A stretch of DNA of 64,000 nucleotides from the NCBI RefSeq assembly GCF_003334355.1, contig NZ_QOWP01000013.1, one strand, 5' to 3'. Shown in pieces: positions 1 to 25,662 of the stretch (position 1 is its first letter; each line of letters begins with the position of its first letter). Made by a program: the position numbers and the translations under genes. A model generated the notes under the pieces. It worked only from the letters and a program-made list of their open reading frames with translations, was not told the origin of the DNA and made no database searches. Source of the DNA: Escherichia coli (GTDB lineage Bacteria; Pseudomonadota; Gammaproteobacteria; Enterobacterales; Enterobacteriaceae).

Positions 1-77
1 TGTTTTTGTCATGTGAGTCACCTCTGACTGAGAGTTTACTCACTTAGCCGCGTGTCCACTATTGCTGGGTAAGATCA
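1..77 (-). mobile_element. IS3 left terminal inverted repeat plus first 4 codons of orfA (insE); element body lies upstream of the window
   Basis: Reverse complement of 1-77 reads TGATCTTACCCAGCAATAGTGGACACGCGGCTAAGTGAGTAAACTCTCAGTCAGAGGTGACTCACATGACAAAAACA, matching the IS3 end and orfA start (ATG ACA AAA ACA = MTKT) as I recall them. All three plus-strand frames hit stops within nt 1-47. Confidence 0.85.
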
Positions 78-695
78 GATAGCCCATCAGCCATAGCGGT
101 TGGGCAGCGTAAAGACGGGGAAATCTACACAGCGGATCTCAAAAGTAAGGCGCTTGCATTCACGATGGCACACGCACTTGAGCTCGGTGATAAAATGATT
201 TCAATCAATCTATTACCTATGACCCTGGTTAACGAACCTGACGCAGTCTCTTTTTTACTTAATGAAATAAAGGCCAATGCTCTGGTGCCTGAACAAATCA
301 TCGTTGAATTTACTGAAAGTGAAGTCATATCTCGGTTTGATGAGTTTGCCGAAGCGATTAAATCGCTAAAGGCTGCTGGTATCAGTGTAGCAATTGATCA
401 TTTTGGCGCAGGTTTTGCTGGTTTGTTACTCCTGTCACGCTTCCAGCCTGACAGAATTAAAATCAGTCAGGAATTGATTACCAATGTTCATAAAAGTGGG
501 CCACGGCAGGCAATTATTCAGGCGATCATAAAATGCTGTACATCACTTGAAATTCAAGTCAGTGCTATGGGCGTGGCAACACCAGAAGAGTGGATGTGGC
601 TTGAATCCGCAGGAATTGAGATGTTTCAGGGAGATCTGTTTGCTAAAGCTAAATTGAATGGTATCCCTTCCATAGCGTGGCCAGAGAAAAAATAA
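78..695 (+). pseudogene. bluF: bluF (ycgF) 3-prime fragment encoding the EAL-domain portion; 5-prime BLUF-domain part separated by the IS3 insertion
   Basis: Open frame from 78 (DSPSAIAVGQRKDGEIYTADLKSKALAFTMAHALELGDK...) to stop at 695; EAL-like C-terminus; synteny immediately upstream of bluR. Preceded directly by the IS3 end; no in-frame continuation upstream. Confidence 0.7.
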
Positions 696-814
696 TTTTC
701 AGCACATTCTTTCACATGATTTCAGTAAATCATCGTGAAAATGAATACGTTACGTTTAAATTTAATCCACATTAAAAATAATGTTTCATCCAATTTAGCT
801 GAAATCTTATTTAT

Positions 815-848
815 ACTTTGTACAATTTTAGCGTATATTGTACAAAGT
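815..848. promoter_or_regulatory. Perfect 12-bp inverted repeat ACTTTGTACAAT-N10-ATTGTACAAAGT upstream of bluR; candidate MerR-type operator
   Basis: Seen directly in sequence about 50-85 bp upstream of the bluR GTG start; the factor that binds it is inferred, not known. Confidence 0.4.
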
Positions 849-899
849 ATTATTGGGTCGTGTACAGGCGACGGAGATTTGTGACCGCAAGGAGGAATT

Positions 900-1631
900 G
901 TGGCTTATTACAGCATTGGTGATGTTGCTGAACGTTGCGGGATTAATCCTGTCACTCTCCGGGCCTGGCAACGCCGCTACGGTTTGTTAAAACCACAGCG
1001 CAGTGAAGGCGGACACCGACTCTTTGATGAAGAAGACATACAACGCATCGAAGAGATCAAGCGTTGGATAAGTAATGGCGTCCCTGTAGGCAAAGTTAAA
1101 GCATTACTGGAAACCACCAGCCAGGATACGGAAGATGACTGGAGCCGCCTGCAAGAAGAGATGATGTCAATTCTTCGCATGGCTAATCCTGCCAAACTAC
1201 GCGCGAGAATTATTTCACTGGGTCGAGAGTACCCAGTAGATCAATTGATTAATCATGTTTACCTTCCTGTTCGCCAGCGTCTCGTGCTTGATCACAACAC
1301 CTCCCGCATTATGAGCAGTATGTTTGACGGCGCATTAATTGAATACGCAGCAACCTCGCTTTTCGAAATGCGCCGTAAGCCCGGTAAAGAAGCCATTCTG
1401 ATGGCGTGGAATGTTGAAGAGAGAGCACGATTGTGGCTGGAAGCATGGCGTTTATCATTGTCAGGATGGCACATTTCTGTTCTTGCTGATCCCATTGAAT
1501 CGCCGCGCCCGGAACTGTTCCCGACGCAAACATTGATTGTCTGGACAGGCATGGCACCAACGAGAAGGCAAAACGAACTTTTACAACACTGGGGTGAGCA
1601 AGGTTATAAAGTCATCTTTCATGCCCCCTAA
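900..1631 (+). CDS. bluR: MerR-family transcriptional repressor BluR (YcgE)
   Basis: 243-aa ORF with GTG start preceded by AAGGAGG; N-terminal MerR HTH ([30 protein letters not shown]); synteny bluF-bluR-ycgX. Confidence 0.85.
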
Positions 1632-1851
1632 TTTCACCTTTATCCCGCCCCTTAGACAGAATGTTATAATCTGAACCCACAACAGCGTTTGTACCGGAGC
1701 TGGTCCGTTGCAAAATGCTCACCGGGAGAATTCAGATATTCCCTCTATCACACTCTGTACATATCACAGCCAAAGGACAGACCAGATTGAAGTGGTAAAA
1801 CCGATCGTGCACACTACGCAGTCTCACAACTAACAAGAGGTTATTATCCTG

Positions 1852-2256
1852 ATGGATCAGGTCGTTGTTTTTCAAAAGATGTTTGAGCAAGTGAGAAAAG
1901 AGCAAAACTTCTCCTGGTTTTATTCAGAATTAAAACATCACCGTATTGCACATTACATTTATTATCTGGCTACGGATAACATCAGAATTATTACTCACGA
2001 TGATACGGTTTTGTTATTAAGAGGAACCAGGAACCTGTTAAAAGTTAGTACGACCAAGAACCCTGCTAAAATAAAAGAGGCCGCATTGCTTCATATTTGC
2101 GGAAAATCTACATTTCGGGAATACTGTTCAACACTGGCAGGCGCGGGCGTTTTCCGGTGGGTTACTGATGTTAATCATAACAAACGCAGTTACTACGCCA
2201 TTGATAATACGCTTTTATATATTGAAGATGTAGAAAATAATAAACCATTAATCTAG
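1852..2256 (+). CDS. ycgX: DUF1398-family protein YcgX
   Basis: 134-aa ORF; length and position between bluR and iraM match the K-12 ycgX. Confidence 0.75.
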   Translation: MDQVVVFQKMFEQVRKEQNFSWFYSELKHHRIAHYIYYLATDNIRIITHDDTVLLLRGTRNLLKVSTTKNPAKIKEAALLHICGKSTFREYCSTLAGAGVFRWVTDVNHNKRSYYAIDNTLLYIEDVENNKPLI

Positions 2257-2465
2257 CTAAAGTTGGATACTTAAGAAATGCTTCATAATTCAGTAAGGCA
2301 TTAGCATAATGGAAATAAAAGTGCAGAGACTATCTCTATGGATGATTAATACTGTCTTTTTATTGTCACCCATAAATAATCACCAGACTAATACTATCAA
2401 CTTGATATTTGAAATGTGATCACTTGACTTTTGATACGTTATTTTATAACGGTTAACATATTTAT

Positions 2466-2512
2466 AAAAACAACGGCCGTGCCACACGTCCGTTTCAATA
2501 CTTAACGCACAT
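2466..2512 (-). terminator. Terminator-like hairpin (ACGGCCGTG..CACGTCCGT) with T-run on the minus strand; imperfect copy of the icd terminator
   Basis: Hairpin plus TGTTTTT on the minus strand; about 80 percent identical over 45 bp to 3333-3380. Confidence 0.45.
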
Positions 2513-2955
2513 GTATTTTGGTTTAGTCATCATCCGGTTATATGTATTTTAGCCAGGAACAGGTTAAATCATTCCTATATAACTCAAAAATTGAAACCTT
2601 ATTCTCATGTCATGCTTATATTCATTATTATCGTTATATAAAAAGGCAACCATAATGTTTAGCAAATTGGCACAAAGTAGCATAAAGGCTATGTTTTAAT
2701 TACAGGATGTTCAGTCATTTGAATGTATAACATTATAGCTAAACAAATCTAAAACGAAGTCAATAATTTATTGCTTTCACAAAATCTCATTTTGTTTAAC
2801 ATCCATTGAGATTCCTTGCTTTAAATTTTATTTTATATAAGCCATCATTTTAATTAATTTATTTTTTTGAGGGGGGGGTAATATACTCATATGCAAAATC
2901 AAGAAATAAACATCCTAATGAACCATATTAAATACCGTGGGATAAGACATAACAA

Positions 2956-3279
2956 ATGAAGTGGATAGTAATTGACACGGTAATTCAACCTACATGTGGT
3001 ATATCTTTTTCAGCCATATGGGGTAATATGAAAATGATCATCTGGTATCAATCTACTATATTTCTCCCTCCTGGCAGTATATTTACACCGGTTAAGTCTG
3101 GTATTATCCTTAAGGATAAAGAATATCCTATTACTATTTATCACATCGCACCATTCAACAAGGATTTATGGAGTTTACTCAAAAGCAGTCAAGAGTGTCC
3201 TCCAGGAGAAAGCAAAATAACAAATAAATGTTTACATAATAGTTGCATTATAAAAATATGCCCATATGGGCTCAAGTAA
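2956..3279 (+). CDS. iraM: Anti-adaptor protein IraM (YcgW), RssB inhibitor that stabilises RpoS
   Basis: 107-aa ORF ([18 protein letters not shown]...) in an AT-rich segment between ycgX and icd; matches my recollection of IraM in length and sequence. Confidence 0.75.
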
Positions 3280-3321
3280 TGGGCTTCATATAAATATGCT
3301 CGATATGCTATTAATAATATC

Positions 3322-3357
3322 CACATAAATAAAACAACGGGCGTGTTATACGCCCGT
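3322..3357 (-). terminator. icd rho-independent terminator
   Basis: Perfect 7-bp stem ACGGGCG/CGCCCGT with 7-nt loop immediately after the icd stop, followed on the minus strand by TGTTTTATTT. Confidence 0.75.
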
Positions 3358-3381
3358 TTCAATATTTAACACATGGAGAGA

Positions 3382-4632
3382 TTACATGTTTTCGATGATC
3401 GCTTCACCAAACTCTGAACATTTCAGCAGCTTAGCGCCTTCCATCAGACGTTCGAAGTCATAAGTTACGGTCTTGGCATTGATTGCGCCTTCCATACCTT
3501 TAACAATCAGGTCAGCCGCTTCAGTCCAACCCATATGGCGCAGCATCATCTCAGCGGAGAGAATAATAGAGCCAGGATTTACTTTGTCCTGACCGGCATA
3601 TTTCGGCGCAGTACCGTGGGTGGCTTCAAACAGGGCGCATTCGTCACCGATGTTTGCACCAGGGGCGATACCGATACCGCCAACCTGCGCTGCCAGGGCG
3701 TCAGAAATGTAGTCACCGTTCAGGTTCATACAGGCGATAACATCATATTCAGCCGGACGCAGCAGGATCTGTTGCAGGAATGCATCAGCAATCACGTCTT
3801 TAATGACGATCTCTTTGCCAGTGTTCGGGTTTTTAACTTTCAGCCACGGGCCACCGTCGATCAGTTCACCGCCAAACTCTTCACGCGCCAGCTGGTAGCC
3901 CCAGTCTTTAAACGCTCCTTCGGTGAACTTCATGATGTTGCCTTTGTGCACCAGAGTCACAGAGTCACGATCGTTAGCAATTGCGTATTCGATCGCTGCA
4001 CGAACCAGACGTTTGGTGCCTTCTTCCGAACACGGCTTAATACCGATACCACAATGTTCCGGGAAGCGAATTTTCTTCACCCCCATCTCTTCACGCAGGA
4101 ATTTAATCACTTTCTCGGCGTCGGCAGAGTCTGCTTTCCATTCGATACCCGCATAAATGTCTTCCGAGTTTTCACGGAAGATAACCATATCGGTCAGTTC
4201 AGGGTGTTTAACCGGGCTTGGAGTGCCCTGATAGTAACGTACCGGACGCAGGCAGATGTAGAGATCCAGTTCCTGGCGCAGGGCAACGTTCAGAGAGCGA
4301 ATACCGCCACCAACCGGAGTGGTCAGCGGACCTTTAATGGCAACGCGATATTCACGAATCAGATCAAGAGTTTCAGCAGGCAGCCAGACGTCCTGACCAT
4401 AAACCTGTGTGGATTTTTCACCGGTGTAAATTTCCATCCAGGAGATTTTACGCTCGCCTTTATAGGCTTTCTCGACTGCAGCGTCGACCACTTTCAGCAT
4501 GGCTGGGGTTACATCTACACCGATTCCATCACCTTCAATGTAAGGGATAATCGGATTTTCAGGAACGTTGAGTTTGCCGTTTTGCAGGGTGATCTTCTTG
4601 CCTTGTGCCGGAACAACTACTTTACTTTCCAT
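3382..4632 (-). CDS. icd: Isocitrate dehydrogenase (NADP), ancestral-type 3-prime end with no e14 prophage
   Basis: 416-aa [41 protein letters not shown]...; C-terminus ...[21 protein letters not shown]. Confidence 0.95.
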
Positions 4633-4803: not shown

Positions 4804-5457
4804 ATGCGGCAATTCATAATCTCTGAAAATACCATGCAAAAAACTTCTTTTAGAAATCACCAGGTTAAGCGATTCAGCTCGCAACGTTCTACCAGGCGTA
4901 AACCTGAAAACCAGCCCACGCGTGTGATCCTGTTCAATAAACCCTACGATGTTCTTCCGCAGTTCACCGATGAAGCCGGACGCAAAACATTAAAAGAATT
5001 CATCCCGGTTCAGGGCGTTTATGCAGCAGGTCGCCTTGACCGCGATAGCGAAGGGTTGCTGGTGCTGACCAATAACGGCGCGTTGCAGGCGCGTTTAACC
5101 CAGCCGGGTAAACGCACCGGAAAAATCTATTATGTGCAGGTGGAAGGTATTCCCACACAAGACGCACTTGAAGCCTTGCGCAATGGCGTAACCTTAAATG
5201 ATGGCCCTACCCTGCCCGCCGGCGCGGAGCTGGTTGACGAACCCGCGTGGTTATGGCCGCGGAATCCATCAATTCGTGAACGCAAAAGTATTCCCACCAG
5301 CTGGCTGAAGATCACCTTATATGAAGGACGTAATCGCCAGGTGCGCCGCATGACCGCCCATGTTGGCTTCCCCACGCTGCGACTGATTCGCTATGCGATG
5401 GGTGATTACTCTTTGGATAATCTTGCCAATGGCGAATGGCGAGAAGTGACAGATTAA
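4804..5457 (+). CDS. rluE: 23S rRNA pseudouridine(2457) synthase RluE
   Basis: 217-aa ORF with RsuA/RluE-family motifs ([19 protein letters not shown]); synteny. Confidence 0.9.
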
Positions 5458-5466
5458 GGATGCAAA

Positions 5467-7088
<1,622 letters not shown>

Positions 7089-24588: not shown

Positions 24589-25662
24589 ATGAAACAAAAA
24601 GAGCTATGGATTAACCAGATCAAAGGGTTATGTATTTGTCTGGTGGTGATTTATCACTCGGTCATTACCTTTTATCCGCATCTGACCACTTTTCAGCATC
24701 CGTTATCGGAAGTCCTGAGCAAATGCTGGATCTATTTCAATCTTTACCTTGCCCCCTTTCGTATGCCGGTTTTTTTCTTTATATCCGGCTATTTGATTCG
24801 CCGCTATATCGACAGCGTACCGTGGGGAAATTGTCTCGATAAACGGATCTGGAACATCTTCTGGGTGCTGGCGCTTTGGGGCGTGGTGCAGTGGCTGGCG
24901 TTAAGTGCGCTGAACCAGTGGCTGGCACCTGAGCGCGATTTAAGCAATGCCTCCAATGCCGCTTATGCCGATTCTACCGGTGAGTTCCTGCACGGGATGA
25001 TCACCGCCAGCACCAGCTTGTGGTATCTGTATGCGTTAATTGTCTATTTCGTGGTATGTAAAATTTTTAGCCGTCTGGCGCTGCCACTATTCGCCTTGTT
25101 TGTACTGCTGAGTGTGGCGGTTAATTTCGTTCCCACGCCGTGGTGGGGAATGAACAGTGTGATCCGCAATTTGCCTTATTACAGCCTTGGCGCATGGTTT
25201 GGCGCAACAATAATGACCTGTGTTAAAGAGGTGCCGTTGCGCCGCCATCTGCTAATGGCTTCTTTGCTTACCGTTCTGGCGGTCGGTGCCTGGTTGTTTA
25301 CTATCTCGCTGCTGTTGTCGCTGGTATCGATTGTGGTGATCATGAAGCTGTTTTATCAATACGAGCAACGATTCGGTATGCGCTCCACCAGCCTGCTGAA
25401 TGTGATTGGCTCCAACACCATTGCTATCTACACCACCCATCGCATTCTGGTTGAAATATTCAGCTTAACTCTGCTTGCGCAAATGAACGCAGCACGCTGG
25501 TCGCCGCAAGTCGAACTGACACTCCTGCTGGTTTATCCCTTTGTCAGTTTGTTCATCTGTACTGTTGCGGGCTTGCTGGTAAGAAAACTTTCACAGCGTG
25601 CATTCAGCGATCTGTTGTTCTCCCCGCCTTCACTGCCCGCTGCCGTCAGTTACTCCCGCTAA
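24589..25662 (+). CDS. ycfT: Inner membrane acyltransferase-family protein YcfT
   Basis: 357-aa polytopic membrane ORF; synteny between lolC and mfd. Confidence 0.8.
   Translation: MKQKELWINQIKGLCICLVVIYHSVITFYPHLTTFQHPLSEVLSKCWIYFNLYLAPFRMPVFFFISGYLIRRYIDSVPWGNCLDKRIWNIFWVLALWGVVQWLALSALNQWLAPERDLSNASNAAYADSTGEFLHGMITASTSLWYLYALIVYFVVCKIFSRLALPLFALFVLLSVAVNFVPTPWWGMNSVIRNLPYYSLGAWFGATIMTCVKEVPLRRHLLMASLLTVLAVGAWLFTISLLLSLVSIVVIMKLFYQYEQRFGMRSTSLLNVIGSNTIAIYTTHRILVEIFSLTLLAQMNAARWSPQVELTLLLVYPFVSLFICTVAGLLVRKLSQRAFSDLLFSPPSLPAAVSYSR

Follow-up and report, generated by a model that had tools for sequence, protein, structure and literature searches.

An IS3 element within the blue-light sensor gene bluF of an Escherichia coli strain, probably a simple insertion that leaves BluR without its antagonist

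Light sensing through BluF (YcgF) in E. coli has been described by Tschowri, Lindenberg and Hengge (2012), who showed that BluF binds the MerR-like repressor BluR and in blue light frees the ycgZ promoter of it (PMC3509220). In the same work bluR, bluF and ycgZ were each found to have a transcription start of their own, and both domains of BluF were found to contribute to BluR binding; its numbering of BluF residues (I193/Q195, and the E191-A192-I193 motif) is followed here. The bluF (ycgF) knockouts of K-12 made by Tschowri, Hengge and colleagues are the closest described counterparts of the allele reported below, as they likewise lose the BLUF-EAL anti-repressor and keep bluR and the ycgZ promoter intact. 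The window allele differs from them in being carried by a natural isolate, and the phenotype expected of it is borrowed from the K-12 work (PMC3509220). The element concerned is IS3 of E. coli, a member of the IS3 family present in K-12 as copies IS3A–E with the genes insE/insF (orfA/orfB), whose insertions into dispensable E. coli genes are routine. Further natural alleles with the same element in the same gene are found in other strains, where RefSeq calls bluF interrupted or shortened, and further alleles owe their disruption to IS1 or to frameshifts in an A7 run; these differ from the present allele in mutational mechanism and have in common with it that the same gene is inactivated and an identical 176-aa ORF (M229–K403) is left behind.

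The stretch analysed, a 64-kb piece of E. coli DNA referred to as the window, begins within an IS3 end that is followed directly by the 3′ part of bluF (Table 1). In K-12 MG1655 bluF is intact, with 1212 nt, and IS3 is absent from the locus, as the preliminary description had stated. The IS3 insertion in the bluF of the window is real, an ordinary strain-specific knockout, and its broader importance is small.

Table 1. Features of the bluF–bluR locus in the window (window coordinates) and IS3 insertions in bluF of other complete-genome records (bluF nt; orientation relative to the window).
Feature	Position	Strand or orientation	Basis or remark
IS3 left (IRL) end, nt 1–77 of the 1258-bp element	1..77	−	77/77 to full IS3 copy
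IS3 terminal inverted repeat	about 77–39	−	end sequence
bluF (ycgF) 3′ fragment, codons 199–403 + stop, partial degenerate EAL	78..695	+	MG1655 identity, Pfam
GAT, bluF codon 199; presumed 3-bp target duplication, downstream copy	78..80	+	junction position
Residual ORF, 176 aa, BluF M229–K403	165..695	+	ORF list; first in-frame start (ATG 165) after TAG 45–47
bluR promoter region, intact	810..846	+	promoter scan; primer extension in PMC3509220
bluR (ycgE), intact MerR-like repressor antagonised by BluF, 243 aa	900..1631	+	ORF; identical to K-12; annotation in PSS-12 and others
bluF::IS3, GmM062	nt 99–101	same	GTC duplication
bluF::IS3, A30	nt 193–195	same	ATA duplication
bluF::IS3, Res13-Lact-PEB20-37-A	nt 519–521	same	CTT duplication, junctions read
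bluF::IS3, PEB21-38-A, sister of PEB20-37-A	nt 519–521	same	inferred from identical coordinates
bluF::IS3, A29	nt 432	same	pdeG-side other flank
bluF::IS3, XJ6.2	nt 99–101	opposite	upstream flank read
bluF::IS3, 2017-02-1CC	nt 99–101	opposite	site inferred from identical match span
bluF::IS3, ABWA45	nt 116–118	opposite	TCT duplication
bluF::IS3, TUM14664	nt 325	opposite	IS3 truncated by IS903B
bluF::IS3, 102651	nt 325	opposite	site inferred from identical match span

The first 77 nt of the window read tgtttttgtcat...ctattgctgggtaagatca, or TGATCTTACCCAGCAATAGTGGACACGCGGCTAAGTGAG...ATGACAAAAACA as the reverse complement, and in BLAST this reverse complement matched nt 1–77 of IS3 at every position (E 5.7e-36). 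The reference was a complete 1258-bp copy from strain Res13-Lact-PEB20-37-A, given in RefSeq as ‘IS3-like element IS3 family transposase’ with a programmed frameshift; the curated K-12 ‘insertion sequence:IS3A’ agreed with the window in 74/77 positions, the mismatches being the outermost 3 nt only. Window 77–1 thus carries the IS3-specific end sequence (TGATC...) exactly, and a comparison of the two IS3 ends, TGATCTTACCCA... and TGATCCTACCCA..., showed the expected imperfect inverted repeat. The ATG of insE (orfA) lies about 65 nt inside the left end, at IS3 nt 66–68 (window 12–10, minus strand), and the gene reads leftwards out of the window, so that four of its codons (M-T-K-T) are visible; K-12 insE1 begins ATGACAAAAACAGTA at IS3 nt 66, to which window 12–1 (ATGACAAAAACA) is identical. 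The visible segment amounts to only 6% of the element and within it shows no difference from full-length IS3 copies, with which it shares the inverted-repeat end TGATCTTACCCAGCAATAGTGGACAC and the MTKT start of orfA. Judged by sequence, the segment is IS3 in every character that 77 nt can display. With the full IS3 as query it was also the sole match in the 64-kb window. Both the BLAST match and the position of the insE start bear out the preliminary description, which had recognised nt 1–77 as the reverse complement of the IS3 end with the first orfA codons.

The sequence beyond the IS3 end is bluF. Codon 199 of bluF opens at window 78 (bluF nt 595), and the fragment is 100% identical to nt 595–1212 of MG1655 bluF, encoding D199–K403 and the stop. 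The identity extends further, window 77–3546 matching MG1655 1214882–1211413 at 100% and without gaps; base 77 (A) fits IS3 and bluF nt 594 alike, which places the junction within 1 nt. The fragment sits in its native setting, directly upstream of bluR and followed by ycgX, iraM and then an intact icd, with 100% identity to K-12 through bluR-ycgX-iraM. Pfam analysis of the 205-aa translation found positions 66–235 of the 236-position EAL model and no BLUF domain, which leaves an incomplete EAL domain with roughly 65 of its 236 positions missing at the start. The break falls six codons past the degenerate E191-A192-I193 motif, and the BLUF domain, the linker and the motif itself are all missing from the fragment. 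Nor was a copy of bluF nt 1–594, ycgZ, ymgA or ariR detected by BLAST anywhere in the 64-kb window. All three plus-strand frames are closed by stops within nt 1–47 (TGA 25–27, TGA 14–16 and TAG 45–47). Two further claims of the preliminary description hold in consequence of these data, namely that the segment is the EAL-domain 3′ part of bluF and that it has no in-frame connection to anything upstream.

What remains of the reading frame is a 176-aa ORF for which a promoter scan gave no promoter-like site on the plus strand before nt 755. The nearest Shine-Dalgarno-like sequence, AAGG, is located about 15 nt upstream of its ATG, so there is no convincing ribosome-binding site, and judging from these features the ORF is probably not expressed. 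By descent, as seen in identity and synteny, the locus is bluF; in sequence it lacks the protein features that define BluF and is a pseudogene. The 176-aa ‘EAL domain protein’ ORF present at this locus in many assemblies should accordingly be annotated with caution, as it is a remnant of bluF and not a gene.

The arrangement is most readily explained by transposition of IS3 into bluF behind codon 198 (nt 594/595), the transposase genes being antisense to bluF. Its host would have been an E. coli lineage that resembles phylogroup A and is very closely related to strain PSS-12. We consider it highly probable that IS3 at this site, likely as a simple insertion, makes bluF a null allele and deprives the cell of relief from BluR. 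In a simple insertion the remainder of IS3 would adjoin the window on its left, and beyond it would come a GAT duplication and bluF nt 1–597. The far junction is then predicted to read ...GCAAAAAAATGAAGAT (...ATTGTGCAAAAAAATGAAGAT) followed by the right IS3 end TGATCCTACCCACG (TGATCCTACCCACGTAATATGGACA), and the upstream frame would run ...E198-D199 and stop at the TGA with which the right IS3 end opens. The resulting N-terminal fragment would comprise 199 aa, made up of the BLUF domain, the linker and some 45 EAL residues. The proposed 3-bp GAT duplication is plausible by analogy, as other bluF::IS3 alleles carry 3-bp duplications.

A single junction is visible, the IS3 body, its far end and the second copy of the target duplication lying outside the window. 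Of this multicopy repeat exactly 77 nt are included, as is typical of a de Bruijn assembler with k=77 on reaching the edge of a repeat; probably the window begins at the end of a short-read contig, with the other bluF::IS3 junction on a different contig, and this presumed contig end would be the reason why no more of IS3 is included. If the start position is indeed an assembler signature, it could also be taken to indicate that a contig end was misjoined to a collapsed IS3 repeat and that bluF is really intact, and it fits this reading that the junction was found in no other genome. Against it, a de Bruijn contig that runs from the last k-mer of a repeat into unique sequence needs reads spanning the junction, the break coincides exactly with the IS3 terminus (...GATCA) as it does in true transposition, and IS3 in bluF is demonstrably common among finished genomes. 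An assembly artefact is on these grounds extremely unlikely.

The IS3 end might instead mark a deletion or rearrangement, arising through IS3-to-IS3 recombination or adjacent deletion, in which the 5′ part of bluF and possibly ycgZ-ymgABC were lost or moved. Since the rest of IS3 and the 5′ part of bluF lie outside the window, an IS3-flanked deletion and a simple insertion look the same from within it, and the flanks of other bluF::IS3 records were therefore used as a prior for the unseen side. Eight such records had flanks counted as read, including PEB21-38-A, which was taken to be like PEB20-37-A by its identical coordinates; six are simple insertions with both bluF halves present and two are rearranged. 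In one of the latter, A29, the IS3 copy has its other flank on the pdeG side and both 5′ bluF and ycgZ-ymgABC are gone, while in the other, TUM14664, the truncated IS3 copy is adjoined by ycgH. The near-identical strain PSS-12, on the other hand, has the whole ycgZ-ymgAB-bluF region. A deletion or rearrangement is for these reasons an unlikely origin of the junction; were it true, BluR would be without its local target operon as well as without its antagonist.

For the simple insertion, the expected effect on signalling follows from the pathway outlined in PMC3509220. Neither bluF fragment would be a working anti-repressor, and a null allele is expected, given that no promoter-like site or convincing ribosome-binding site precedes the remnant, that its first start codon is M229 and that a quarter of the EAL fold is gone from it. 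BluR would stay on the ycgZ promoter under blue light and at low temperature, and the BluF-dependent induction of ycgZ-ymgABC would be lost, together with the Rcs activation, the increase in colanic acid and the decrease in curli that depend on it, while the RpoS and MarA inputs to ycgZ-ymgABC would be unaffected. As far as can be deduced from the DNA, bluF is thus most likely null and BluR repression of ycgZ-ymgABC is left without relief by light or cold, in agreement with that pathway. It could be argued that the split gene still signals, with the BLUF-containing N-terminal fragment or the 176-aa remnant binding BluR or MlrA and giving partial or constitutive anti-repression, as an interaction of BluR with isolated BluF domains persisted in two-hybrid assays (PMC3509220). 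The remnant, however, is not an isolated EAL domain, as the model positions that it lacks include the strand with the EAI motif, and the defects in expression listed above apply to it as well. The purified N-terminal domain of BluF, moreover, is reported not to have bound BluR in vitro, and even point-mutant variants of full-length BluF lost anti-repressor strength. We regard residual signalling by either fragment as very unlikely. The null allele predicts for this strain the loss of the only dedicated blue-light input to the BluR / YcgZ-YmgAB / Rcs biofilm circuit, a phenotype expected to be visible solely away from the host, under cold and illuminated conditions.

The repressor gene itself is intact. 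Its promoter comprises, according to the promoter scan, a −35-like TTTATA (810–815) and a −10-like TATATT (834–839) separated by an 18-nt spacer, and primer extension has placed the bluR transcription start 54 nt upstream of the start codon (PMC3509220), which corresponds to about window 846. This promoter is more than 700 nt away from the IS3 end, and IS3 transcription is directed away from it. As bluR has its own promoter and IS3 reads away, a polar effect on bluR is not expected. An outward promoter at the left end of IS3, driving the EAL remnant or bluR, was also considered and rejected, on account of the empty promoter scan upstream of nt 755 and, for bluR, of its own mapped promoter (PMC3509220).

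A separate observation concerns the same promoter region. Two 14-nt arms that are perfect inverted repeats of each other (ATACTTTGTACAAT / ATTGTACAAAGTAT) lie 10 nt apart in window 813–850, overlapping the predicted −35/−10 elements and the mapped start of bluR. The core TGTACA of the published sites for BluR and MlrA is present in both arms, and the spacing of the GTACA motifs is 21 nt, compared to 13 nt in the footprinted ycgZ site. From its sequence the repeat may be a candidate site for BluR autoregulation or for MlrA; the 2012 paper makes no mention of BluR autoregulation (PMC3509220).

The age of the insertion was addressed by comparison with other genomes. As one continuous match the junction was absent from 5,426 complete RefSeq genomes of E. 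coli, and two scans of metagenomes gave no match to the observed junction or to the far junction predicted with the GAT duplication. Ten contigs that encode the same 176-aa ORF were likewise without the junction. The closest complete genome was that of PSS-12, from human faeces in Ecuador, which differs from window 77–64000 by seven substitutions and one indel over 63,925 nt and whose bluF is intact and identical to that of K-12. Because a near-identical strain has an intact bluF, the insertion is recent and specific to the source lineage. Natural bluF-null isolates paired with near-isogenic intact relatives such as PSS-12 could be used to probe whether blue-light sensing is dispensable in the wild. 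A full-text literature search, the coverage of which excludes the comparative study by Povolotsky and Hengge (2016), returned nothing relevant on IS elements in bluF/ycgF.

The seven substitutions relative to PSS-12 are located at 24975, 30667, 36550, 47846, 60238, 60315 and 61442, and the only indel is in a G run upstream of iraM (window 2871–2878), which has eight G as in K-12 and nine in PSS-12. K-12 carries the e14 prophage adjoining the locus and the window strain lacks it: identity to K-12 ends at 3546, the outer end of the K-12 icdC pseudogene, icd is intact at 3382–4632, and iraM directly adjoins icd, as in PSS-12 and most matches.

IS3 was found in bluF in ten other complete-genome records, at no fewer than seven sites and in both orientations (Table 1). 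Full IS3 copies at these other sites measure 1258 bp and are annotated with a programmed frameshift, and clean 3-bp duplications (CTT, GTC, ATA and TCT) flank four complete alleles of other strains. The insertion sites differ and do not include the nt 594/595 site of the window; these are independent events and not a shared allele. The window site is a previously unrecorded one of a well-known insertion sequence in an often-broken gene, with no new element or mechanism. The first five genomes recovered all had IS3 in the orientation of the window, and a bias caused by selection or by an outward promoter had been suggested; this was rejected as an ascertainment artefact, the apparent bias arising from a query that held the IS3 end in a single orientation. 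When the right IS3 end was substituted in a chimeric query, five more records were returned, all in the opposite orientation, so that no orientation preference is seen.

Within bluF, nt 99–101 was entered by IS3 in opposite orientations in the unrelated strains GmM062 and XJ6.2, and the ABWA45 site is 17 nt away; the stretch of nt 99–118 looks like a local IS3 hot spot. The upstream flank in XJ6.2 is GCAGCT rather than GCAGTC, making the duplication there imperfect.

The number of IS3 copies in bluF was compared with a rough expectation. About 15,000 IS3 left ends lie outside bluF in the collection (20,418 places minus about one bluF place per genome), and a uniform spread over about 4.9 Mb predicts at most about two in 594 nt, compared to the ten seen in the first 594 nt of bluF, an estimate that ignores clonal relatedness. 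Searches of the same chimeric design gave no IS3-bearing record for the control gene fhuE, purifying selection on control genes being ignored, and four for the adjoining AT-rich ycgX/ymgL region, with only one falling within 594 nt. The bluF stretch has a GC content of 0.44, against 0.51 for the window.

Other lesions in the gene add to these. The tally of broken bluF genes covers IS-based disruptions only, and these roughly, since the search output carries no pseudogene status. Many complete genomes have IS1 in the 3′ half of the gene, among them a group of human and bovine isolates of about 5.4 Mb and several environmental and animal isolates; the match spans of 1598 and 1600–1601 nt suggest at least two insertion events, and in one sampled locus IS1 lies at 3256–3953. 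In the assembly index 1,551 blocks have the 176-aa M229–K403 ORF, and in the places sampled it mostly results from ±1 changes in an A7 run (bluF nt 578–584), 11 nt upstream of the IS3 site. Indels of ±1, once +2, occur in this run in many assemblies (at about 3897–3903 in the sampled loci) and split bluF into a BLUF piece of about 203 aa and the 176-aa EAL ORF; they may be real slippage alleles or, for some, homopolymer errors of long reads. We put forward only tentatively that the AT-rich island from bluF to iraM, and bluF especially, is a recurrent target of IS elements and frameshifts throughout E. coli in which BluF-BluR light and cold signalling is lost convergently, through relaxed selection or through positive selection in host-restricted lineages; this is possible, if rather doubtful, and the window allele would then be one more independent event.

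Insertions are also found next to bluF. In PSS-12 a different member of the IS3 family (5240–6468 of the PSS-12 locus) sits within ymgC, which lies two genes beyond bluF, and IS3 is present in the bluR-ycgX spacer and in ycgX in four other genomes. The whole AT-rich stretch from ymgC to iraM appears prone to IS insertion.
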